Below, piece by piece: positions 1,185 through 16,812 of a DNA stretch of 64,000 nucleotides (position 1 is its first letter; every line of letters starts with the position of its first letter). Source of the stretch: a virus (lineage: Duplodnaviria; Caudoviricetes). The position numbers and the translations under genes were made by a program. The stretch lies in IMG/VR virus record IMGVR_UViG_2883843030_000002, positions 16,370 to 80,369 of that record; one strand, given 5' to 3'. The notes under the pieces are model-generated. The model had not been told where the DNA came from, ran no database searches, and saw nothing but the letters and a program-made list of their open reading frames with translations.

Positions 1185-2663
1185 TTATGAGAATGAATAA
1201 ATTCTTAGTGCGCCGGTGCCCTGCTTCTGCACGATTGTTGTCTCTACCGTACCAGGGAGAAGCCCACGTTCTTTCATCTGGTCGAGTAAAGACTTCATTT
1301 CTTCGCTGTCTGTGAAGAATTTATACTCTGTTACATCACCTACAAAGTGGAACAGCACGACATATCGGGATTCTCCCCAACGTGTCTTGATGTCTTTCTC
1401 GTAGTCCAGAAGTTCGATAGGTCTGTTGGTTATCAAGCCAAGCGACATGTGCTGGCAATTGAACCGCTTCTTGCCGTCTGCTGGAGTATATTTCAACCCT
1501 AATTCGCTGAATTTTGCCATATGTTGTCCTGTTAATTTGAAGTATAGATGTTTGCAATCGGCATGGCAGGCCATGCCCTTGAATGAGCCTATGATCTGCT
1601 GTCGCCGCTTTCGGGATTTTACTCGATGTAATGCTCTTGCCGCTTTAACTTTTATTCTTTTTCGGATGAGCGAATAGATTTCTCCAGTTTCTGCATCATA
1701 GAATGTTCTATAGCCGAGAAAATCTACCCCCTCTGTAATGGGGCGTATAGCAAAAGAAACTTTAATAGTCAGTTTGAGGTTTTTTGCCTCAGCAACAAGG
1801 ACTTCATATATTGCCCAGGCTTCTTTCTTATCATGTGCAAAGAATACGATGTCATCGCAATATCTGTAATAATGAAATCGAATAATCTTGTCGCCCTTAC
1901 CAATTATTAACCCCTCGCCGGAATATACCGGAGCCTCAAGCTCTTCGAGATAATGGCATCTGACAACGCCACACATTTTTTTATCGAGCTTGCTGAGGAA
2001 TAGATTAGCAAAGCACTGTGATGAGCGTAGCCCTTTAGATAGCCCTTTTGGCATCACGCAAATAAGATTGTCAATCATCGGCAGTACCAGCGGGTCGCTG
2101 ATATATTCTCTAGCGCACTCCATCATTAAGATTTGGTCTATCGAATCATAGAACCCCTGGAAATCACTCTGTCCGAAGAACATCATATTCTCGATGTCGG
2201 CCCGCAGGTCGTTCACCATTACATGATGGAGCCAGTGCATACCACGCCCTTTGATGCTTGCGGCAGTATTGTGGATGAGCGTAGGATATACATGGCTTTC
2301 AACGGGCCGCATAATTGCCTGTATCCCTATACGCTTGAATACGGGTGGTGCATGAACAATCCTTGCTTTTGGACCGTCCGTAACCTTCATTTCCCGTAGT
2401 TCTTCCCGGTAGATTCTAAAAGACCCATCGCCAAGTTGTTTTTCGAGGAGATTAAGAAACTCTGACTTTTTGGGCCAAAAGTGTTCACGCTGATGTTTGT
2501 TTTCAAGATGACTTACTAAGTAATCGAAACTTTCGGACAGATTATTTGGGTCGATAATCTCGCCGATGAGGTTATCGAGAGGGAATACGTCTGAGTTCGC
2601 CCCGATTATCTGCCGGGACGGTAACTCCACATCCATGAACGGTATTTCTACAATCTTATCCAT
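1185..2663 (-). CDS. DGR reverse transcriptase with fused C-terminal domain
   Basis: YRYCDD catalytic motif, KGLRSSQ (DGR GxxxSQ motif), SIKGRG, DFQGFYDSI, GVDFLGY; frame open to 2807 but likely start ATG 2663 (MDKIVE); adjacent to TR. Confidence 0.95.
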   Translation of the reverse strand: MDKIVEIPFMDVELPSRQIIGANSDVFPLDNLIGEIIDPNNLSESFDYLVSHLENKHQREHFWPKKSEFLNLLEKQLGDGSFRIYREELREMKVTDGPKARIVHAPPVFKRIGIQAIMRPVESHVYPTLIHNTAASIKGRGMHWLHHVMVNDLRADIENMMFFGQSDFQGFYDSIDQILMMECAREYISDPLVLPMIDNLICVMPKGLSKGLRSSQCFANLFLSKLDKKMCGVVRCHYLEELEAPVYSGEGLIIGKGDKIIRFHYYRYCDDIVFFAHDKKEAWAIYEVLVAEAKNLKLTIKVSFAIRPITEGVDFLGYRTFYDAETGEIYSLIRKRIKVKAARALHRVKSRKRRQQIIGSFKGMACHADCKHLYFKLTGQHMAKFSELGLKYTPADGKKRFNCQHMSLGLITNRPIELLDYEKDIKTRWGESRYVVLFHFVGDVTEYKFFTDSEEMKSLLDQMKERGLLPGTVETTIVQKQGTGALRIYSFS

Positions 2664-2816
2664 TATTAAAGCCTTCAGGACTCCTGTGATGTTTCCGCTT
2701 TCCAGACTTTCGTCTGCTGTTGCCGAGGCTCGTATCCCTCGCAGAAATGCAATGACGGACACGCCGCCGAGCAGGGTCTTACGATTCTGTTGACGGTGAG
2801 GGAGCACCGTTTTATC

Positions 2817-2934
2817 CTTAATGTGAGCCGAGAGCTGTTGTTCGTGTTCGAGTTCGAAGAAGCGTTATTCGCGTTCGAGTAGACGAGACCGCCATTCGCG
2901 TTCGCATTGTTGTTCGACCGACCGACGCACCGGC
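2817..2934 (-). repeat. DGR template repeat (TR)
   Basis: 118 bp matching 3103-3220; all 15 mismatches are at A of the minus strand; 12 AAC/AAT codons in the VR reading frame. Confidence 0.97.
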
Positions 2935-3012
2935 TTTGGGATACTCTACCTTTTTTGAAAGTTTCTTTTCCTTGTTATCTCTTGGGGTTATGAGTTTGAC
3001 AATATGCAATGG

Positions 3013-3048
3013 GCTTCGGCCTCGGGCTTTGTTGCCCGAAACCGAAGC
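3013..3048. other. GC-rich hairpin between the target stop and TR (DGR target-recognition hairpin or terminator)
   Basis: gcttcggcctcgggc-tttgtt-gcccgaaaccgaagc, 15-bp stem with 2 mismatches. Confidence 0.6.
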
Positions 3049-3059
3049 GACGCTTTTCG

Positions 3060-6000
3060 TTATGCCGCGCTCTCCGCAGATTCAACTATTTCGAAATTTC
3101 CGCTGAAGGCGAGCCGAGAGCTGACGCTCGTGCTCGAGCTCGAAGAAGCGTAATACGCGCTCGAGAAGACGAGACCGCCATTCGCGTTCGCACTGTAGTA
3201 CGACCGACCGACGCACCGGCCCCTATCATTAGTATAATAGTATCCGTCAGAATAGTTCTTATTCCACTTGCTGTTGTCGGTAGTCACTCGCGAGGCGATT
3301 ATGTCGCAGTATCTGCCAAATTTAACACGACCGATGCAGTATCCAGAGGTGTTTAAGCCTTGGATAACGCTTTCCTCTTTCGTCTGATAGTTGCGGACAA
3401 CATGGTACTTTGCATCAAGCGGGTATGATGATGTCGCAATACGCTTGTCTTTCTTGTACTGAGCGAATGAGGGCACATTGGCGGCAATGAAGTCCATGAC
3501 CTCCCAGTTGCAGCCGACAAAGTTCTGTATACCGAATATAATGTTGCCGATGTTTGAACCGGAATATTTTCTTGTAACCTTTCCATAGCTGTTGAAATTA
3601 TTCTGTCCGGTAACGTACTGTGAGCCACAACCATATCCAGCGTAAGCCTGAATGTCGCGGGTTCCAGTCAACGCCATCACAAGGTTGGCGATGTCCTTGC
3701 TTATCTCATAGCTGATACCGTGGAAACCCTTGCCGCGCATTTCGATAAGATTTAGTATGTCGGCATAGGTATAGTTCATAGTAGAGGTGGGAACAGAAGT
3801 ATTCGTGATGTTGCCCTCGTTGTCGTACTTCCAATCGGCATTTGTTACCGATGTGCCGGTACCTGTGCGAGTTTTTACGCCACTGATTGAACGAGGTCGC
3901 ATAAGAGCGTCAACACTCATGCCGTAGATGCCGACGAAACGCATAGGCACCCATACCCAGTCTGGTTCGATGGCCTCGATAGCGGCACTGTCAACTGCAA
4001 TAGCTTCAAGGTTATCAAAGCCAGTAGGCGATGTGAACACAATCTTCTTGGCACCGCTTGGCACATCGCAGAACACATAATCACCGATTGAGAAATCGAA
4101 TAGTGAATGACTTACGGCCATATTGAATGTACCTACCACTTTGTCGTTTTCGTCTACGAACACCGCGCCAATTTGTGCGTTGTTGAGCCCGGGCCAGCGA
4201 ACCTGCTTCATGCCTTCAACTTCGAGTTCATAGACATTCATGTTGGCGTTATCGACTATCTCGTAGTCTTCGCCCTTTGAGAGTGCCGTCCCGTTATTGG
4301 ATGTATAGACACAAGAGTACGCCTTCACAAGAATATCAGCCAGTTTCTTTCGATTGGTTTTCATTGCCGTGGAGAGTGGCAGAGAGGCGAAACTGCAAGC
4401 AAACAGATATTTTTTCTGATTCTTGAAGTCATTAACGCCTTTATACCAATATAGGCCGAAACCGAGCATCACATCAAAGCCCTCGCCTGCTTGGTCTGTC
4501 GGATCATACTCGGTGCCGTTTGCCATCAGATTGTAGTTGGTATCCATAATCTGACGTGCGAGCAGCTTGGACTCTCGGGAATCGTAGGTGCATCGGTACG
4601 GGTGGGCTGCATCGAATATCTTGACAAAGTGACCGCTTGGCTCATAGTCTTCCTTACTTGTGCCGTTATCGAGATTCGTGATATTCTGACAGTCGTCGTC
4701 GGTATCATCGAAACGGACGCACGAATACTGCGAGTTAAAAAGGGTTAATTGCGGGAAGTATGCTGCAAGGCTGTTAGGCTTGGTTTTGTCAAGTTCGGTG
4801 TCATCAATGAGGTCTTCCATAATCCAACGACCCGTTACGCCAGAACACTGATTGCTTTCCTCATAGGCACTCCCCGTGGGGTCGAGACCTATAGCACCGC
4901 TTGCGCGGAGAGATTTTAGGATAGATGAGGGAGCCGTAATATTCACGTCCGGCAAACGGAGGTAACGGAGGTTAGACGAACCTACGATGCCGCTGATGAG
5001 TGTGTACGGGTCAACATTCGGACAGCCGGCTAGCATGAGGCGGTTAACACTTGACATGCCTGCGATTGTCAAACCTCCGGGATATGTGAGATTCGGCAGG
5101 TTGATAAAGTTTAACTCCGTCATAGTTGCTGGCAACTCCAAAGTGCTTATCGGAGAGGTTTCGGCAGTGCTGATGTTTGTCAGTTCCGAACCTGATGCAA
5201 GCACACTTTCCAGTCGAGGACATTTTGCGGCGTTGATAGATGCCACTTCAGTAGTTCTTACATCGAGGTGAGTGAGGAACGGTAGGTCGCCGAGATTCAT
5301 GTTGGTGAGGAATCCGGTGTTGCCTGGAGATAGTCTCCAGGACTGACGGTGGTTGGTCGAGCCGATAACGATTTTCTCTGCCAGTTTCATCTGCGAGAAC
5401 TGGAAGTTCGGGTCCAAGGAGATTTGCGAGAGGTCAATTTCGCTCATCTGGTCGGCCTGATAGATATAGAGAAGAATATTATCGCCGTGCTGGAAGTTGG
5501 TGAAAGTGCCCTGCTCGCCGGCCTTGAGGTACATGCCCTGCGTTACGTTGCCACCATCGTTACCAATACCAAAGTAGCCGGACTTGGCGGCACGGAAACG
5601 AATTACAGCTCCTGTCTTGGCTCCGATACGACCACCAAGTACGTGGCTTGCATCCTTGAAGTCACCGGTTTGGTAATAACCATCGCGGATGCGCCAACGT
5701 TGCTCAATAAATCGGGGGAGCGACTGACGGCCGGAACCATGGAGTGCGTAATAATAGATATCTGTGTATAGCTCAGAATACTTGATGTATTTGCGCTCAC
5801 AGTCGAACGTACAAACTACCTTGGGCCAGAAAGCAATTCGCTTCTGCACGAAGTAATAGTTCGCGCCTTTAGGCGAGAATGGGCCAGCACCGATACCGTC
5901 GACCTCAGGAAGATTACGCATGAGGTCCACAACACCGGGAAGAGTGAGGGTACCGCCCATAGCATTTGCAACCATTTCCTGATTGTCGCAGCGACGGAGA

Positions 6001-9000
6001 TTGTTCCATAAGATAGAGCCACGGCCGGCGTAGCACTTGTCGTCTTCAGCAGGATCGAGCTCAGCAGGAATTGTGTTACCGCCATCGTTATCTTTACCGT
6101 TGCATGTATCACAGTCGTAAACCTTATTGAAGTACATGCGTATGGGCTCCATCGCCGATGGGGAATGGTATTCTCCATTCTCCACCCAGCAGCCATCTTC
6201 GAGGAAGAACATGGGCTGCATGTTTTTGGCTTGCTGGTCCACAGCGGCGAGATAGTCGGTGAATGTGTAGTAAGCCAGAAGCGACTGAATGCTCATATAA
6301 CGCCATGCGTTATCCCTCCACAACTGTTTCCATGTTGCAGAGAGTGCGGCCTTGGAATAGTCGCAAGAATCACAGAACTTGAGTACATTGAACAGCTCAT
6401 ATGGAACCTTGCGGCCCATTGCGAGGTCTTCCTGCAGTTGGTCGTCGTCAATCATGCACTCGAAATACTGCGTCCATGCCGGGTATGACTGCTGTCCGAG
6501 GCTGAGTTTTGACACCCATGATGACTGCGTTTCGACGGGTGCCATCATATCGTCGATTGATCCGACGCCCATAAACCAGTCCATAGCATCGTATGTGATA
6601 AGCTCATAGCCAGACACTGGATTGAGGACATCTCCGATAATCTGCCACTTGCCGTTGACCTGCTTCATAGAGCCGGTACAGCGGGCCCATTCGCCACCGC
6701 TGTGGCGCATGAAGATGTAGTCACGTCCACAATACTGCGAAAGCAGATATAGCTTGCTCGTATCAAGTCCTTCGGTGGTTTTGAAACGAGCCATAATCTC
6801 CGTGAGTGTTTCCTGGCTTTGGAACTTGCCGGCGGAATTGAAAGTTGCCTTGCCGAAGAATTCAACAAAGTCGCCATAGTTGCGACAGCCTTTGTTGTAG
6901 CCTGATGTGTCTTTGAAACCGAGTGCCACCTGCTCACCCTTGTCTTCTTTCCAGTTGCCACGGGCATGGAACCAGGCATCACTAAGTGAATCGTTGGTTG
7001 CACGGAAAGCGGCAATTGGGTGGTTGGCAGTCGAGTGATTCATTTGCAAGCCGGTTACAGATATACCGCTCTTACTCCACGTGCCGTCGAAGGCCCTCTG
7101 CGCTGGGGTGATATAATCGCTTCCGAGGGCACGGAAAGTGGCATTCATCATATCACACACGCCGCAGTCGTTCGCCATGGATGAATCGGAGTAGTCGACC
7201 TTAACTGTGAGGATAGCTACTGGTATAGAGTTCTCGATCACACGCACATATCCGATGCTGAACAGTTCGTACGTCTTGAGTGCATCAGCATTGGTGTAGT
7301 CGGGATTGAGTGCGGTAATCTTCCAGTTCTTTTCTTTGCAGAGATAGAAGCGGTCGTTTTTGATAGGACGCTTGGCTGAGGTAGTACCCTGACGACGCCA
7401 ACGCACGTTTTCTGCCTTGAAGGACCTCCACGGCAAAGTTGGGTGGAAGTAATAAAGCGTACACAAGAAATTTGTCTTGGTGTCGATATCCGAGTCAAAG
7501 CTGTCGAATGTAGCTTGGGGGGCTACTACAACGTAGTAAGGGAAACCTTTCTCCTTGAGCAGATCCATCGAGGGGCGGTTCTGATTATCGAGGACATTCT
7601 CTGCGTCAAACTCGGCAATCATAGCATTGGTGTCCGTGAGCTTGCAAAGATAGTTTTGGAATGCCTGAGCCCACTCGTAATAGCTATCGTATGCAAGTGT
7701 ATAGTAGAGGTAAAAGTCTCCGTCTGTGCCGTCGAATGAAATCTGCTTTTGGTTGAGAATCGCGCCGGAATTGGAAACATAGCCAATAGCACCGATTTCT
7801 TCACCGTCGACATATAGTTTGATGGTGGAGTAATCAGTGGAGCCACGATTGACGGTTATTGTGGACGGTTCCACAACAATTCCTACTGTAACTTTTTCAC
7901 TGCATCGGAATGAGCGTGTAATCTGCGAGGGCGTACCGTTCTTGCAGCACACCACAATCTTGTTACCGCAGATATAGAAGCCAGCACCAGAGTTAGGATC
8001 GTAGCACTCCATGAGCTTCGCGTCTTCATCCTTAACGTTATTTGTTGCAAAGGCAAACTGGAACGCCATACCATTTGTGCGTTCAGTGGCAGCCGAGCCA
8101 AACGGGGCGTAAGGGATACGGGCTTTGACATTTTCGGCAATACGCAGGCAGTTCTCGTTGAGGTAGGTTGCAAAACCATTCGACGACCAGTTAGCCCCAA
8201 TAACGTCCATAGTATAACCGTTATTGGTAATTGTGTGATCGGCCTCAGAATTCGAACGGCTGGCAAAGTCGTATCCAAAGAGTGCTCCTTCCTTAATGAT
8301 GGCAGAAATAGCAGATCCTACTACGCGCACCGATATAGGACTGGTTTGGCTGGCTCCGCTCTTCGCATAGAATTGTATTATTGTGGAGCCGTCGGTATCG
8401 TAGCCCTGAATCTGCTTGCGTATTGGATAAGTCTGGGAAATGTAGCAATCGTTGGAGATAATTTCCTCTCCGTTCATGTATACTTCTACTGTTGTGGGCT
8501 CCTTACCAGGCGTGTATGCTGCAATCTCCAGTTCGAGATTATCATACAGTCGGACAATGCCATTGTTAACATCGTTGTAACGGAGTGCCACAATGGGTAC
8601 GTTAGACTTTGAGTCAACGCACATTATTGTAGAGTAAATTGTGTTTCCTTTAACGCCCGACGCAACATCCTCGCCGGATATGCGAATTGGATAGGAGCCG
8701 TGCTCAAGACGCTCTCCGCCTCCGAGCACATTGCAAGGATCAATCGAGATTGAGTGCGAATAGCTATCTGTGATGGTCGCCTCGCCGAGTTTCTTCCATT
8801 CGCCGTCAAGATATATCTCGGTCATGACTTTCACACCTTGCTTCGATACGTTATTGGCGAACTTATACATCAGCAGGTTTTTAGACGAGCCGCCTACTTC
8901 TAGTACCGAGCTTGAGGTATAGTTGATAGTCTGCACGGAAGTACAAGTTACATCGACGGCTGTTACCGTAACGGTACGACGCTTCACGTTGCCCTCTGCA

Positions 9001-11249
9001 TCGTAGGCAACGATAGTGAAGTCTCGCTGGGCCGCTTCTGCGAAGTATGGAGTGAAGTCGAACTTGAACGTGTAGTTTGTCGCTGAGGTCGATGAATTCT
9101 GATTGACATTCTCGCTCCATAAGGAAAGCCCGGTTGTTGCGTCGATGATTTCGAGACGACGGATGACGCCCAATACCTCTGTATCGCCATCGAATGTAAC
9201 AGACTTAATGGCAGCATTTGCTATGATGTCAGAACCAAACGCTGCGTATATGGCAGGGTTCTCGAGGTATATAGAGAGCGTGGAGCCACTTGCGGAGCCC
9301 GAACCGGTGCTTTTGGGGAGCATGATGGGATCGCCCATTTCGTTGCCTCGCTTGTCAACAGCCTTGATTATATGGTTGTCGGCATCTTGGTCGAGGTCAA
9401 GATGGTCGAAAGCTGATTGTTGCATTTCGTAGGCCCCCCCTGTTGAAAATGCGTCTTTGCCACCGTTTTCGGGCTGGTCTGAGGTTTTTACAGCACCGCC
9501 GCCGCCAAACTCTTTCCAGAGTTCTTTGTTGGCAAAGTCGGTTACTTCTCCGGTAAATTGGTAGGTTTCCCATTTGTATTCTTCGGCACGAAATGTCAAT
9601 ATAAGACCACTCTTGGCGTAAGTGATGCCGGAAGACTGCTGTGTCGAGAGTATTGCATCAATGGCACTGTCTTTCGTGTAGTAGCCGGTTACGGTTCGGG
9701 GGCAGAGATTATCTACATTGATAATAGCCTCTGCGCCGGCGGACATCCCTGCAAGGTCTATCCAATTCTTGGTACTCTTGAACTGGGCCTCGGTCACGTT
9801 GGGACCGACATATTGATATGTTTTCCAAGAGCCAGCACTAATGGCGAATGTAATCTGCAAACCGAGCAATGCTTTGTCGGCTGCAAAAACTGCATTGAGG
9901 ACATTGTGAGTTTGTGTTTCAGCCATTATGTCCGAGTAATACTCTCCGTCTGGGAGGGGTATTTCTACCGTGGCGTTGAACGTATTGCCGACAGCTGCCC
10001 CACCTCCGCCAAATGGTTTCCATTGGGTGACGTCATTCCAATCGGCATCTTCGTCGAACACATTCTTCTGCCACTGGTATGCTACCCATTTGTATTTCTC
10101 CTCGCCATTACTGCCGAGTTCAGCCATGAGAAAGGTAACTACTGCACCATAGGCTTGGTAAGCTTCATCAACTGAGCTTACTGCACTCTGGAGTGTGTAG
10201 AATGGTTCGTCTGTGTCATAGAGCGCATTCAGGTTGAGGAACAGCGTAGCCATGAGCTGGTGGCTATGGTTCGACAACTGATTTCTATTCTCGATTGACT
10301 GCTCGTAGGCCTCTTTACCCTTGTCTCCGGGGAAAGCAGTGTTTGCGGTCTCTCCGAGCGCGAGGTCATTTCCGATTATTACGAGTTCACTACTACTCCA
10401 ACGAAAGGTCTTGTTGTCAGAGGTGCTGATATAAACTTTGCCAGACTCTGGGGTAACACCATCTGCTGTAACTACCCCAAAATTTTCCTTATCGGCCCAG
10501 TCAGAATAATACTTGAACACCGCCATGTTGAGTTCGAGGTGTCCTTCTTTATCAGTCCAGTAATCACTGAGTCCGGGACGGAGTATGCCACCAGGAATCG
10601 TAGGCGTTGACATTTCGACATCATCTGCCTGCACCGACGGAATGTCTGCCACCGTAGTTCCTCGGAGGGGACGCAGAACGCCGCCCCAGTCTATAACAGA
10701 ATCTTGAGCATAAATCGTACTTACTGCAAGTATGAACTTGTTTGTTTCCTTGTTATACACAAGCATTGCACCGGGCGTGGTTGACTTTGCGCCTGTCGGA
10801 GAGTCTTGGATTGTGATACCTTCGACCATAGCGTGAAACTCAACAACATCGTCAACGAAACCAGGAAGGTATGCTGCCGGCACTTTTGCGTTGGCATCGA
10901 GAGGAGCAATGCCGCTTGGCATACCTTTGGAATCGGTAACTTTCTTAGCTGCTTCGGCTGTACTTTTAGCTGTGTCGGCAGTAGACTGGGCCGCTGTTGC
11001 TTTTGTTTTTGCATCTTTGGCCTCATTGTATGCAGTAGTAGCCGTGTTTGATGCTACTGTTACAGCCTGTTGAAGCGTGTTGTCTTTAGATGCTCGTTCA
11101 CTCGTTTCTGTGGAAAGCGATTGGTCGACGTTCTCGATGATGTCAACAAGGACTTTTCCGACTCGCTCTGCCGTGTTTTTGCCCTCACCGTCCTCATATC
11201 TGATAAGGTCGGCTTGGTTTTTGAGATTGGTTTTATTATTCAGACCCAT
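3060..11249 (-). CDS. Giant tail fibre/receptor-binding protein, DGR target (three internal repeats, CotH-kinase-like region, LRR region, C-terminal CLec-like domain)
   Basis: 2729 aa; NTAERVG and LALGETANTAFPGDKG fibre-type motifs; GCNWE...SSRLAF CLec-type C-terminus containing the VR. Confidence 0.85.
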   Translation of the reverse strand: MGLNNKTNLKNQADLIRYEDGEGKNTAERVGKVLVDIIENVDQSLSTETSERASKDNTLQQAVTVASNTATTAYNEAKDAKTKATAAQSTADTAKSTAEAAKKVTDSKGMPSGIAPLDANAKVPAAYLPGFVDDVVEFHAMVEGITIQDSPTGAKSTTPGAMLVYNKETNKFILAVSTIYAQDSVIDWGGVLRPLRGTTVADIPSVQADDVEMSTPTIPGGILRPGLSDYWTDKEGHLELNMAVFKYYSDWADKENFGVVTADGVTPESGKVYISTSDNKTFRWSSSELVIIGNDLALGETANTAFPGDKGKEAYEQSIENRNQLSNHSHQLMATLFLNLNALYDTDEPFYTLQSAVSSVDEAYQAYGAVVTFLMAELGSNGEEKYKWVAYQWQKNVFDEDADWNDVTQWKPFGGGGAAVGNTFNATVEIPLPDGEYYSDIMAETQTHNVLNAVFAADKALLGLQITFAISAGSWKTYQYVGPNVTEAQFKSTKNWIDLAGMSAGAEAIINVDNLCPRTVTGYYTKDSAIDAILSTQQSSGITYAKSGLILTFRAEEYKWETYQFTGEVTDFANKELWKEFGGGGAVKTSDQPENGGKDAFSTGGAYEMQQSAFDHLDLDQDADNHIIKAVDKRGNEMGDPIMLPKSTGSGSASGSTLSIYLENPAIYAAFGSDIIANAAIKSVTFDGDTEVLGVIRRLEIIDATTGLSLWSENVNQNSSTSATNYTFKFDFTPYFAEAAQRDFTIVAYDAEGNVKRRTVTVTAVDVTCTSVQTINYTSSSVLEVGGSSKNLLMYKFANNVSKQGVKVMTEIYLDGEWKKLGEATITDSYSHSISIDPCNVLGGGERLEHGSYPIRISGEDVASGVKGNTIYSTIMCVDSKSNVPIVALRYNDVNNGIVRLYDNLELEIAAYTPGKEPTTVEVYMNGEEIISNDCYISQTYPIRKQIQGYDTDGSTIIQFYAKSGASQTSPISVRVVGSAISAIIKEGALFGYDFASRSNSEADHTITNNGYTMDVIGANWSSNGFATYLNENCLRIAENVKARIPYAPFGSAATERTNGMAFQFAFATNNVKDEDAKLMECYDPNSGAGFYICGNKIVVCCKNGTPSQITRSFRCSEKVTVGIVVEPSTITVNRGSTDYSTIKLYVDGEEIGAIGYVSNSGAILNQKQISFDGTDGDFYLYYTLAYDSYYEWAQAFQNYLCKLTDTNAMIAEFDAENVLDNQNRPSMDLLKEKGFPYYVVVAPQATFDSFDSDIDTKTNFLCTLYYFHPTLPWRSFKAENVRWRRQGTTSAKRPIKNDRFYLCKEKNWKITALNPDYTNADALKTYELFSIGYVRVIENSIPVAILTVKVDYSDSSMANDCGVCDMMNATFRALGSDYITPAQRAFDGTWSKSGISVTGLQMNHSTANHPIAAFRATNDSLSDAWFHARGNWKEDKGEQVALGFKDTSGYNKGCRNYGDFVEFFGKATFNSAGKFQSQETLTEIMARFKTTEGLDTSKLYLLSQYCGRDYIFMRHSGGEWARCTGSMKQVNGKWQIIGDVLNPVSGYELITYDAMDWFMGVGSIDDMMAPVETQSSWVSKLSLGQQSYPAWTQYFECMIDDDQLQEDLAMGRKVPYELFNVLKFCDSCDYSKAALSATWKQLWRDNAWRYMSIQSLLAYYTFTDYLAAVDQQAKNMQPMFFLEDGCWVENGEYHSPSAMEPIRMYFNKVYDCDTCNGKDNDGGNTIPAELDPAEDDKCYAGRGSILWNNLRRCDNQEMVANAMGGTLTLPGVVDLMRNLPEVDGIGAGPFSPKGANYYFVQKRIAFWPKVVCTFDCERKYIKYSELYTDIYYYALHGSGRQSLPRFIEQRWRIRDGYYQTGDFKDASHVLGGRIGAKTGAVIRFRAAKSGYFGIGNDGGNVTQGMYLKAGEQGTFTNFQHGDNILLYIYQADQMSEIDLSQISLDPNFQFSQMKLAEKIVIGSTNHRQSWRLSPGNTGFLTNMNLGDLPFLTHLDVRTTEVASINAAKCPRLESVLASGSELTNISTAETSPISTLELPATMTELNFINLPNLTYPGGLTIAGMSSVNRLMLAGCPNVDPYTLISGIVGSSNLRYLRLPDVNITAPSSILKSLRASGAIGLDPTGSAYEESNQCSGVTGRWIMEDLIDDTELDKTKPNSLAAYFPQLTLFNSQYSCVRFDDTDDDCQNITNLDNGTSKEDYEPSGHFVKIFDAAHPYRCTYDSRESKLLARQIMDTNYNLMANGTEYDPTDQAGEGFDVMLGFGLYWYKGVNDFKNQKKYLFACSFASLPLSTAMKTNRKKLADILVKAYSCVYTSNNGTALSKGEDYEIVDNANMNVYELEVEGMKQVRWPGLNNAQIGAVFVDENDKVVGTFNMAVSHSLFDFSIGDYVFCDVPSGAKKIVFTSPTGFDNLEAIAVDSAAIEAIEPDWVWVPMRFVGIYGMSVDALMRPRSISGVKTRTGTGTSVTNADWKYDNEGNITNTSVPTSTMNYTYADILNLIEMRGKGFHGISYEISKDIANLVMALTGTRDIQAYAGYGCGSQYVTGQNNFNSYGKVTRKYSGSNIGNIIFGIQNFVGCNWEVMDFIAANVPSFAQYKKDKRIATSSYPLDAKYHVVRNYQTKEESVIQGLNTSGYCIGRVKFGRYCDIIASRVTTDNSKWNKNYSDGYYYTNDRGRCVGRSYYSANANGGLVFSSAYYASSSSSTSVSSRLAFSGNFEIVESAESAA
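3103..3220 (-). repeat. DGR variable repeat (VR) at the 3' end of the target gene
   Basis: Encodes RCVGRSYYSANANGGLVFSSAYYASSSSSTSVSSRLAF versus TR RCVGRSNNNANANGGLVYSNANNASSNSNTNNSSRLTL. Confidence 0.97.
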
Positions 11250-11263
11250 AGTAAGATTGTTTT

Positions 11264-11779
11264 TTAACTTCCTATTTTGCGAATGGTGCAGCCACCAGCG
11301 GAGATCACTCGACGGTTACGTCCTGATTGGAAAAGATTTTGAGATTTACAAAAGGCAACACACTCGTTGAGATAGTGGTGTGCTACTTCAAGAGCGTTGT
11401 TGTAGCAATCTGACCGCTCTTTACTCGAAATTTCACGAGAGTAGTCGCCTTGCTTTACGACAGTGCCGAAGCGGGTACTTTGGAAGTCTCCTGTCATTAC
11501 ATTCTGCGCATACACATAGTATGAGAGTGCGACTTTGAGACCCATAAAAGACCGCATTTCTCCATTACAGTCATTGTATGTGCCGCCATTAAGCAGGAGC
11601 TTGTATATGTCGTTACTGTCGCCTTCGGCGAGGATTTTTAAGAACAACGCGTCTCCGAGTGCCGGCTTAATATTCATTTGCTCAGCTTCGGTGATGTATG
11701 CGAGTAATTTTGAATCTTCGACCTTACCGATGGGTCGGCCAAGTGTTACTACTTCTTCAGGGCTTATTATGTGCTCCAT
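11264..11779 (-). CDS. Putative head-tail adaptor (DUF6712-like)
   Basis: YITEAEQMNIKPALGDALF...GLKVALSYYVYA; follows portal. Confidence 0.65.
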   Translation of the reverse strand: MEHIISPEEVVTLGRPIGKVEDSKLLAYITEAEQMNIKPALGDALFLKILAEGDSNDIYKLLLNGGTYNDCNGEMRSFMGLKVALSYYVYAQNVMTGDFQSTRFGTVVKQGDYSREISSKERSDCYNNALEVAHHYLNECVAFCKSQNLFQSGRNRRVISAGGCTIRKIGS

Positions 11780-12956
11780 CGCTTTCGTTTGATTGGTTGC
11801 TCACATAGACCAAAGGCTGAATCGAGTAGTCACCGTTTGGGTTGACTTCTTCATACCAGTGGTCGAATATCTTTTTCAGTGCTCGAGATATGGCACGTCT
11901 CTCTTTGGCGACATACGAGTTGTAATACTCGTAGGCTTCTTTGACTGCCGTTCCACTCCAACCAGTCTTGCCAGTGCGTATGAGATACCATGGCTCTTGG
12001 CCGAAAGCTGAATAGATTCGCTCGGTCGTACTTTTTTCCGTAGAGTCGAACTTATCATCAAAGTTGGTGGATTCAAACGGAACAAATTCCGGCTTATCTT
12101 CTTCAGAATTATAGGTTACATCTATGATGGAACAGGCATTTACATCGCCTTGGAATGCATCAAGGCTCTTAACGAAGTCTATGTCGTCAAGAGTCGATTC
12201 ATTCCTTGTATCTCCATTATCATCAAGGCCGGTCGCCACCCCCTTTTTGTGCATGAGCATACCTGACATCAGGAAGTTATTTCGGGTGTTGCGATATTTG
12301 ACGTTATCCAGTCCTTCGTCTGTCGAAAGATTGGTCACCACTTTGTCGTAAATCGGTTTAGGATACTCGAAACGACCATCCATGGAGTACCAAAGAATTT
12401 GGCCCTTATATTTGTCAATACCGCCGGATTTGACGATTTGAGCAAGGATTACTTCTTTAATGGGATTGAACGTGTATATTTTATCCACATGTCCCTTATC
12501 CACAAGGATTTTATTACCCTTACGCGTCTTATGGCCAGTCCAGTCCGGATGTATATTTATGTAAGTTACCGATCCGCTTTCGGTTTCTTCCTCAAGACGA
12601 CAGTTTTGGAACGGTATATGGTTAAGTTCTACGATTTCGCAAGCAAGATTGTAATTGACATGAAGTGCGAAACCATGATATAATGCCATATCCTGAGCTA
12701 TAAGTCCCAATATATCGTCGACTGTATCTCCGGCTCTATTTACGACATATTCTGAAAAGTTGGTGTCGTTTAATCCGTTACCTTCTATGAATGTCTGATA
12801 GCGGTCACAACATCCTCCCCCTGTCGGACTATTCAATATCAAGTCTAGCATACGCTGAGGATATAGGTTATCCTTTCCGTATGCCTGGATATTGAGAGTA
12901 CTCCAGTAGGCGGTTGTGAGACGCTTGGGAGAACGTTTGACGCTATTTATATTCAT
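11757..12956 (-). CDS. Portal protein
   Basis: 399 aa; YGKDNLYPQ...SPT, HIPFQNCRL, YPKPIY motifs of Bacteroidetes phage portals. Confidence 0.8.
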   Translation of the reverse strand: MNINSVKRSPKRLTTAYWSTLNIQAYGKDNLYPQRMLDLILNSPTGGGCCDRYQTFIEGNGLNDTNFSEYVVNRAGDTVDDILGLIAQDMALYHGFALHVNYNLACEIVELNHIPFQNCRLEEETESGSVTYINIHPDWTGHKTRKGNKILVDKGHVDKIYTFNPIKEVILAQIVKSGGIDKYKGQILWYSMDGRFEYPKPIYDKVVTNLSTDEGLDNVKYRNTRNNFLMSGMLMHKKGVATGLDDNGDTRNESTLDDIDFVKSLDAFQGDVNACSIIDVTYNSEEDKPEFVPFESTNFDDKFDSTEKSTTERIYSAFGQEPWYLIRTGKTGWSGTAVKEAYEYYNSYVAKERRAISRALKKIFDHWYEEVNPNGDYSIQPLVYVSNQSNESDGAHNKP

Positions 12957-15486: not shown

Positions 15487-16812
15487 TTACTTTTTACCAC
15501 GTTTCTCGCGTTTTGCGGTGGTAGCCTCGCGGCGTTCACGGATAGCCTTCTGAGTCTTTGACTCAGTGGGTGTCGCTTGGCCTCCACCGGCGGGTGCTCC
15601 ATGAGAAACGAAGCGGCGGTTGGTAGGGGTGAAAGATGAGCGCATGCCGATGGTTGCGTCAAGCCATGCCATGCCTCCGGCCTTGTTGACTTTAGCAACG
15701 ATGGGACGGGCACTCTTGAGCTCTGTTTCCTGCTTTTCAATGGTCGCCTGCAGCTCTTCGACAGTCGCCTGCAGCTCTTCCACCTGTGGTGCATTCTCTT
15801 CGGGAGAGGCGTCCGGGTCGATTTCTTTGAGGCGTCCGGTGAGTTCAGCGATGATGGCGCGAATCTCGTCAGGGTCGTCCATAGAGTCGATGGGGTCGGG
15901 TTCGTCGTCATTCTGCTCGGGATCGATGATGTCGGTGATGATTTCACCTTCGACTACGACCTTTACGCCGTCGTCGAGAACATAGGTACCGTCAGGATAG
16001 GCAACGTCGCCAATCTGCGGATCGCCGTCTTCACGTTCTACCGTGAACTCATTGCCGTCGGCTGCAGTCACAACCTGGGCTTTCGCACGAGCGATGCCGG
16101 CTTTGGCAAGAAAGCGAGCGAAAGCAGAGGGCTTCTTTTCAGCAGGGCTACCTGCTTGGGGTTTGGGTTTAGCCATAGTTTTGTTATTGGTTTGAGATTT
16201 GATATTTCGTTTCCTAAGTCTGTGAGCGGTCGTGGGTACGAGAATGTGGCTGATAAAACCAAGTTCTTGGGCGCGGTCTGCGTCGATGAACGTGTTCTTA
16301 TCCATGAGAGCTTGTAATGCTTTGCGATTGGCTCCAGTACGTTCCACATAGAGATCCAAAATGCGGTCTTGCTCTTCACGCAGTGCTTTTGACTGCACTT
16401 CGAGCTCAGTAATAAGAGCATCGAGCTTATCAGGTGTGTAGCGGAGAGGCAGGTCTGTCATCAGATACTCGTATGCTGGATTGTGCAAGCACATACGCAT
16501 ATTCTTGTTTGCGTACCGCCGTTCAGCAGGTGCTGCAAGAAGTATTACTGAGGCGATGGAGGAACATTCGCCCTCAACCGTTGCAGATACGGTCTTACCC
16601 GACCGGCGGAGAGCATCGTAGATAGCCCAACCCTCACCACAGTCGCCGCCGCAGCAATGAATTCGCACGTCGATGACGTTGTCATCTTCCGGTATAGCGT
16701 CGATGAACTCCTGCACGTCTTTGTAGCAAACCCCCTCGGGGCCGCCCATAGACACCGTGAAGGTCTTCTGTTCCTCGTCCACTATGTCGCTGTAGATTTT
16801 GAGTTTTGCCAT
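15487..16812 (-). CDS. Clp-type prohead protease with scaffold-like C-terminus
   Basis: IHCCGGD, CSSIAS, HNP, AQELGF ClpP motifs; likely start MAKLKIY at 16812. Confidence 0.88.
   Translation of the reverse strand: MAKLKIYSDIVDEEQKTFTVSMGGPEGVCYKDVQEFIDAIPEDDNVIDVRIHCCGGDCGEGWAIYDALRRSGKTVSATVEGECSSIASVILLAAPAERRYANKNMRMCLHNPAYEYLMTDLPLRYTPDKLDALITELEVQSKALREEQDRILDLYVERTGANRKALQALMDKNTFIDADRAQELGFISHILVPTTAHRLRKRNIKSQTNNKTMAKPKPQAGSPAEKKPSAFARFLAKAGIARAKAQVVTAADGNEFTVEREDGDPQIGDVAYPDGTYVLDDGVKVVVEGEIITDIIDPEQNDDEPDPIDSMDDPDEIRAIIAELTGRLKEIDPDASPEENAPQVEELQATVEELQATIEKQETELKSARPIVAKVNKAGGMAWLDATIGMRSSFTPTNRRFVSHGAPAGGGQATPTESKTQKAIRERREATTAKREKRGKK

Follow-up and report, generated by a model that had tools for sequence, protein, structure and literature searches.

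Does a giant phage protein whose tip is hypervariable also carry an enzyme in its shaft? The question is raised by a 64,000-nucleotide (nt) stretch of a Caudoviricetes virus (IMG/VR record IMGVR_UViG_2883843030_000002, positions 16,370 to 80,369), hereafter the window, in which the open reading frame (ORF) list and its translation give a tail-fibre-like giant structural protein of 2729 amino acids (aa; P0001, 3060..11249). All features located in the window below lie, like this gene, on the minus strand. The protein is the target of an adjacent diversity-generating retroelement (DGR). An initial annotation, made from the DNA letters, had proposed a CotH-kinase-like domain at 5700-7500, marked by four ordered motifs and followed by a leucine-rich-repeat (LRR)-like stretch and a C-type-lectin domain carrying the DGR variable repeat (VR).

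From N- to C-terminus, the best explanation of the protein is a fibre-anchor-like region, immunoglobulin-like and concanavalin A (ConA)-like modules, a CotH kinase, a sandwich resembling carbohydrate-binding modules (CBMs), an LRR region, and a TaqVP/Mtd-like lectin with the VR. Few gut phages are as widespread as the Hankyphage-like and related Bacteroides prophages, and it is their DGR target that most probably determines host range. What is added here is a set of structure-based domain limits, a family-wide tally of the catalytic residues and the description of a lineage-specific insertion in the kinase domain.

A predicted CotH fold in the shaft of the giant protein

An AlphaFold2 model of aa 1201-1950 was generated from 39 aligned relatives and without templates, and has a mean predicted local distance difference test (pLDDT) score of 91.7 and a predicted template-modelling (pTM) score of 0.90. 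When this model was compared with 350,542 PDB chains using Foldseek, the sole two at an expectation value (E) <= 0.001 were 5jda and 5jd9, the CotH kinase of Bacillus cereus (E 1e-5, probability 1.00, target-normalised template-modelling score 0.54-0.56), and the next match had an E of 0.025. Structural superposition with VIA-align placed 351 of the 359 CotH residues on model residues 34..661 (Z 20.6, root-mean-square deviation 3.8 Å). The second-ranked structure, a Fam20 secretory kinase from Hydra (5xom), reached a Z of 6.0 over 240 aligned residues. By these measures the modelled region has a CotH-type atypical protein-kinase-like fold. The predicted domain extends over aa 1234-1861 (5667..7550, delimited from the AlphaFold2 model, Foldseek and VIA-align), nearly exactly the interval of the initial annotation. 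Language-model look-alikes of the domain, which serve as a lead only, belong to CotH families in 29 of 30 matches, and identity between the domain and the CotH structures is 10-11%.

The 628 residues of the domain span 351 aligned positions, so that about 277 residues are insertions relative to CotH. The largest of these, at aa ~1451-1600 (6450..6899), was delimited from column coverage and from the strands of the AlphaFold2 model, where it is confidently modelled as a beta-rich segment. It is lineage-specific: of the 95 relatives whose domain is complete, only ~20-58% cover its columns, and Hankyphage, with 6 of the 151 insertion columns, is missing it.

The same fold was found in other viral proteins. 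In BFVD, 21 entries match the model at E <= 0.001, and several already carry the name 'CotH kinase protein' or 'spore coat protein'. Large proteins of crAss-like phages are in this set (cr52_1 'Internalin-like protein', cr124_1 'Spore coat protein-like protein' and cr272_1), as is gp353 of Bacillus phage G. Since crAss-like phages and phage G carry CotH-fold domains, the module seems to be used repeatedly in phage structural proteins, perhaps also outside the DGR-bearing phages.

Conservation of the catalytic motifs

The four motifs of the initial annotation all lie in order and in frame in the 2729-aa ORF. The N-lobe motif RRQGTTSAKRPIKN (aa 1285-1298; 7356..7397), located by its in-frame position, is the counterpart of R-G-N-T-S-x4-K-K-S in CotH; the family pattern is Q-G-T-[ST]-S-x3-P-x-K-N, the protein studied here reads Q-G-T-T-S-A-K-R-P-I-K-N, and the G-x-[ST]-S...K(K) signature of CotH is thereby present. 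The second motif, KVDYSDSS, occupies aa 1350-1357 (7179..7202). The putative catalytic loop, AVDQQAKNM (aa 1669-1677; 6219..6245), contains D1671-x4-N1676, and the putative metal-binding motif, VYDCDTCNG (aa 1710-1718; 6096..6122), contains Y1711-D1712-x-D1714.

In B. cereus CotH (5jd9) the loop reads D-G-F-V-H-N, with the same D-x4-N spacing as here, and W-D-Y-D follows 23 residues after the catalytic Asp. In Bacillus subtilis CotH, the D228Q and D251A variants are reported to be catalytically inactive (PMC7821199). The 23-residue spacing identifies D228 as the loop Asp and D251 as the first Asp of W-D-x-D, so that D1671, with its downstream Asn, and D1712, in a [WY]-D-x-D site, would be the respective equivalents. 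The gap between D1671 and Y-D-x-D is 41 residues, compared with 23 in 5jd9, because of an insertion.

Conservation was tallied in an alignment of 153 proteins (the query, 150 listed representatives, Hankyphage and BS-TP4) to the family profile, leaving out of each count the 43-48 fragments or partial matches that end short of the key columns. D1671, K1675 and N1676 are each present in 110/110 covering relatives, and D1712, D1714 and N1721 in 106/106, with Y1711 in 104/106. The N-lobe residues are nearly as constant (G1288 106/106, S1291 102/106, K1297 100/105, N1298 104/104), as are K1350 (110/110) and D1352 (109/110) of KVDYSDSS. Even relatives with 22-27% identity have the catalytic Asp and Asn unchanged, and Hankyphage, at 27%, retains all four motifs. 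The AlphaFold2 model places K1350 at the end of a strand with a long helix directly after it, a position that would suit a nucleotide-binding lysine.

A reference set of 31 CotH domains from Bacteroidota genomes has the G of G-x-T-S..K in 30 domains, the S in 29 and the K in 28, and both the catalytic-loop D and the first D of YDxD in all 31. The CotH motifs that the initial annotation had cited are thus conserved in 28-31 of 31 domains, besides occurring as D-G-F-V-H-N and W-D-Y-D in B. cereus CotH. The annotation had also made its kinase proposal depend on a kinase-like predicted fold and on conservation of the catalytic Asp and Asn in homologues; the model proved CotH-like (Foldseek E 1e-5, Z 20.6), and D1671, N1676, D1712 and D1714 are without exception in the relatives counted. 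The combination of predicted fold and catalytic motifs supports aa 1234-1861 as a genuine, very divergent CotH-fold atypical kinase domain.

The diversity-generating retroelement

The DGR is real. A repeat comparison identified a template repeat (TR) at 2817..2934 and the VR at 3103..3220, the latter encoding aa 2677-2716 of the giant protein. The 118-nt pair differs at 15 positions, and 15/15 of these mismatches fall at TR adenines on the coding strand. The adjacent reverse transcriptase (RT; 540 aa, GTG start, 1185..2807) matches phrog_1423 'Reverse transcriptase' at E 7.6e-65 and RVT_1 at E 1.6e-6, the latter with 28.4 bits, slightly below the 29.6-bit cut-off. With a VR that differs from its TR at TR adenines alone and an RT next to it, the giant gene is a DGR target.

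About 125 nt separate the stop codon of the target from the TR, and the RT ORF starts directly after the TR. No recognisable gene for Avd, the accessory variability determinant, was seen at 2935-3059 or at 677-1174. The sole match of a 165-aa ORF downstream of the RT is phrog_19239. In Hankyphage a small ORF is located between VR and TR.

Relatives and distribution

A HMMER search of 1.84 billion representatives returned 182 relatives at E <= 0.001. Among the matches listed, the non-fragment relatives are mostly giant proteins of ~1300-2950 aa, and none resembles a free-standing CotH. The nearest metagenomic representative is 84% identical. Among GenBank phages, BS-TP4 and BKO1-TP3 of Bacteroides come closest, with 67-68% identity in this region. 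The Hankyphage group follows with ~27% identity over the kinase region, and the target of Hankyphage itself (BK010646) has 2245 aa; all GenBank relatives are annotated 'hypothetical protein'.

In IMG/VR, 62 loci match at 49-90% identity, of which 41, with 6 kb or more of sequence downstream, formed the informative set. An RT homologue lies downstream in 38 of these 41 loci and a lectin-tail homologue in 37. Because the loci are close kin, this association is descriptive only. By tblastn no RT homologue was found in three of the 41 (L059, L085 and L093), two of which also have no lectin-tail match; in these loci the fibre may have diverged or may lack a DGR.

Function of the kinase-like domain and alternative readings

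Invariance of the N-lobe motif, the D-x4-N loop and the Y-D-x-D site across the family argues for a working phosphotransferase and not a relic, and on this motif evidence we regard a catalytically competent domain as likely. The overall picture that we consider probable, held slightly less firmly, is that of a CotH-fold kinase in the fibre shaft, with a lectin tip diversified by the DGR. A kinase domain built into the shaft of a giant fibre, whose C-type-lectin tip the adjacent DGR diversifies, would use cytoplasmic ATP in the producing cell and would phosphorylate the fibre itself or neighbouring virion proteins as the virion is assembled. Bacillus CotH phosphorylates coat proteins in spore assembly and ATP is present in the producing cell, which makes action there the likeliest; this site, and self- or neighbour-phosphorylation with it, is proposed tentatively and by analogy. 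More generally, the invariant kinase-fold residues would suggest that adsorption or virion assembly involves an enzymatic reaction.

A number of results weigh against this reading, beginning with those at the sequence level. Pfam gave no CotH match, either for the whole protein at E <= 1 or for aa 1201-1950 at E <= 10, and the PF08757 profile, applied to the complete assembly with E <= 10, recovered just an unrelated host CotH on another contig. NCBIfam gave no match for the protein, phmmer of aa 1201-1950 against PDB sequences returned nothing, and hmmsearch of PDB sequences with a profile of 39 family members found no CotH. When the family alignment was compared with the 31 CotH domains using hhalign, the match had an E of 0.18 and 19.7 bits (range E 0.07-0.18); this score lies near that of a reversed-CotH control (E 0.51, 15.7 bits), and the profile evidence alone is thus not significant. 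The proposed equivalence of D1671 and D1712 to D228 and D251 is drawn from motif and profile alignment, and KVDYSDSS could not be mapped onto a CotH residue, the sub-alignments giving meaningless matches of 5-13 columns. Other points concern function. An ATP supply is not obvious for a fibre outside the cell, and the virion location of the protein is itself something that we infer. A scan of the window for a Ser-rich, CotB/CotG-like substrate gene found none, returning just ORFs of 67-198 aa that are doubtful as genes and the VR itself. Finally, in a full-text literature search on phage CotH-like kinases and C-type lectins, no experimental study or activity assay of a phage member came up.

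Weak as it is, the hhalign alignment is co-linear. Q-G-T-T-S falls on R-G-N-T-S, D1671 on the loop Asp of CotH, Y-D-C-D on its D-x-D and the final helix on its C-terminal helix, and the N-lobe motif meets CotH columns 2-22 at a weak E of 0.065. As the protein has no PF08757 match, and so does not reach the gathering score of 23.8 bits, the Pfam sequence definition leaves the domain outside the family, and it is a relative of CotH at the level of structure and motifs. Pfam searches of the whole protein and of five pieces gave no relevant match, nor did PADLOC for the protein. The host CotH-family protein (contig C22:310430-311386, L003) is a conventional one, an 838-aa open frame that matches PF08757 at E 2.3e-32. 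Of 121 genomes sampled from the host's phylum (Bacteroidota), 40 have CotH matches, often several each, in open frames of ~400-1400 aa.

The missing Pfam, NCBIfam and PDB sequence matches and the non-significant hhalign score are what would be expected if CotH-like motifs had arisen by chance in an ordinary fibre shaft. A confident model that matches CotH near end to end at Z 20.6, far above other chains, leaves this reading extremely improbable, and the motifs are invariant and the language-model look-alikes agree; an ordinary shaft without a kinase fold is effectively refuted by the Z 20.6 match together with the invariant motifs. A second reading accepts the fold and doubts the chemistry. 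The domain would be a pseudokinase that keeps the CotH fold and a nucleotide pocket without catalysis and acts as a rigid scaffold, as a module that binds a nucleotide or ligand, or in assembly of the fibre. The ~277 residues of insertions relative to CotH and a divergence too great for the Pfam CotH model would fit such a role, extracellular fibres seldom bear ATP-dependent enzymes, and the fungal CotH proteins are described as invasins or adhesins. In pseudokinases, however, the catalytic Asp, the Asn or the metal-binding Asp has usually been lost, whereas each of them persists here in every covering relative (106-110 of 106-110). Retention of the catalytic residues down to 22-27% identity indicates selection on catalysis, and we consider a pseudokinase unlikely.

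A third reading keeps the catalysis and moves it outside the producing cell: an active kinase on the virion, aimed by its flanking modules at a glycan or protein of the host surface or mucus. The initial annotation had put forward this idea, as a hypervariable ligand sensor that may be coupled to a kinase-like module and could trigger its activity on the virion or host surface. Predicted binding modules do flank the kinase on both sides (CBM-like and LRR on one, a ConA-like lead on the other), its catalytic residues are invariant, its closest non-CotH structure is the secretory-pathway kinase Fam20 (Z 6.0), and CotH-family domains are common in large multidomain Bacteroidota proteins (40/121 sampled genomes). 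Fam20B and POMK are glycan kinases, so that a sugar could be the substrate. Such an enzyme would nevertheless have to work with low luminal ATP alone; the literature search put no substrate on record and no assayed family member, and the resemblance to CBMs is weak (Z <= 5.6). The link between kinase and DGR is, moreover, not strict, 3 of the 41 informative loci having no RT match. Surface action of this kind is quite unlikely in our view. A retargetable enzyme, in which the lectin-like, LRR and DGR-diversified modules choose the substrate of a virion-borne active kinase and the DGR redirects activity and not mere adhesion, is more doubtful again. Phosphorylation during morphogenesis, within the producing cell, is the action that we retain, with the reserve stated above.

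Modules flanking the kinase-like domain

Upstream of the kinase-like domain, aa 941-1240 (7530..8429) are probably a concanavalin-A-like / Laminin_G_3-like lectin domain. The segment has no Pfam match; its language-model look-alikes reach 0.96 to Laminin_G_3 clusters, a lead only, and the assignment agrees with Wu et al. 2017. Further towards the N-terminus, at aa ~385-620 (9400-10100), there are two tandem modules of ~100-170 aa, KYKWVAYQWQ...WKPFGGGG and EEYKWETYQFTG...WKEFGGGG, each closing with W-K-x-F-G-G-G-G and also seen in the family consensus.

Downstream of the kinase-like domain lies a small beta-sandwich at aa 1862-1949 (5403..5666; model residues 662..749). It superimposes on many carbohydrate-binding modules at VIA-align Z 4.4-5.6, a weak match that suggests a CBM6/35/36-like fold class for this part of the model.

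A second AlphaFold2 model, of aa 1941-2729 (pLDDT 92.0), covers the rest of the protein. Its first part, aa 1941-2174 (4728..5429), is predicted as a series of repeated short strands forming an LRR solenoid, with VIA-align Z 8-10.5 to the LRRs of RPP1, YopM, InlA and IpaH. The family profile matches Internalin-J at E 0.012, and Pfam gave no LRR match in the region. The C-terminal part, aa 2213-2717 (3099..4613), is modelled as a TaqVP/Mtd-like C-type-lectin variable-protein domain (VIA-align Z 19.5 to 5vf4 with 246 aligned residues; Z 11.9-12.3 to Mtd, 1yu0-1yu4), and this lectin fold, at model residues 273..781, bears the VR. The LRR-like stretch, initially annotated at ~4900-5450, and the C-type-lectin VR domain are thus both recovered by fold, while diversification by a DGR, claimed at the same time, is borne out by the adenine-specific mismatches and the adjacent RT.

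Genomic neighbourhood

The giant gene is located within a head/tail structural module, adjoining a head maturation protease and a portal-like gene. Across most of its length (aa 438-2723) the protein matches phrog_14959 of PHROGs, and its N-terminus weakly resembles tail-protein families, among them phrog_1446 'minor tail protein' (E 1.2e-5). The Hankyphage homologue has been termed a putative tail fibre (PMC12135933). Gene position, the phrog_1446 match and the naming of this homologue point to a virion or tail-fibre component.

The portal-like ORF (399 aa, 11757-12956) matches phrog_11226 'portal protein' at E 9.5e-112, and a single small gene (DUF6712, 171 aa) separates it from the giant fibre gene. 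The gene list of the window has no tail-tube or tape-measure gene between the head genes and the fibre gene. The BS-TP4 locus is equally compact, with head genes followed by the fibre, whereas in Hankyphage a large 'minor tail protein' gene stands upstream of the DGR target. The compact head-fibre layout hints at a short-tailed or otherwise unusual tail organisation.

Downstream of the DGR, a 129-aa ORF (342-731) matches DUF2279 'predicted periplasmic lipoprotein' with 29.2 bits, barely above the cut-off. It also matches phrog_26616 'lipoprotein' and, weakly, a holin family, and may be a lysis or superinfection-exclusion gene.

Comparison with known systems

Proteins of this architecture have been described before. 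Wu et al. 2017 (PMC5758913) list, as category f1, 13 DGR targets of ~2000 aa with weak CotH and Laminin_G_3 motifs that are probably phage-borne. Roux et al. 2020 (bioRxiv 2020.04.01.020958) report that the viral targets of cluster PC_00012 have a CotH-like kinase domain, and modelled a member of 2284 aa. Benler et al. 2021 (PMC8008677) note that phages possess a hypervariable C-type lectin joined to a kinase domain of the CotH family, a fusion that they call unstudied. Macadangdang et al. 2024 (bioRxiv 2024.11.15.621889) define a Bacteroides 'domain group 3', variable proteins of >2000 aa in which the active-site motifs of CotH (5JDA) occur together with carbohydrate-binding motifs and LRRs. 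With the architecture present in four papers since 2017, the idea of a kinase joined to a hypervariable lectin is not new, and the 2729-aa protein is a further, distinct case of the published DGR/CotH architecture and not a new kind of system.

As far as the published descriptions of the large phage DGR targets go, that of Hankyphage included, the protein shares with them a length of >2000 aa, a CotH-like region, carbohydrate-binding and LRR modules, a C-terminal lectin with the VR, an adjacent RT and occurrence in Bacteroides prophages. It differs from the Hankyphage target in its ~150-aa kinase insertion, which Hankyphage does not have. With Bacillus CotH (5JD9/5JDA, PF08757) the predicted domain has in common a fold that corresponds near end to end and the motifs G-x-[TS]-S...K, D-x4-N and [WY]-D-x-D. 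It is longer (628 residues versus 359) and forms part of a phage structural protein, whereas CotH is a free-standing 40-kDa coat protein.

The Fam20-family kinases are the second-best structural neighbour, far weaker than CotH and without sequence similarity to the domain, as befits a distant superfamily relative; CotH itself is described as distantly related to Fam20C (PMC7821199). The C-terminal 505 residues are predicted to share the lectin fold of TaqVP (5VF4) and of BPP-1 Mtd (1YU0-4), and have, like them, the VR at the extreme C-terminus and adenine-specific variation. TaqVP and Mtd, however, are chains of ~380 residues with no enzyme domain, whereas the lectin described here is the tip of a multidomain protein of 2729 aa.

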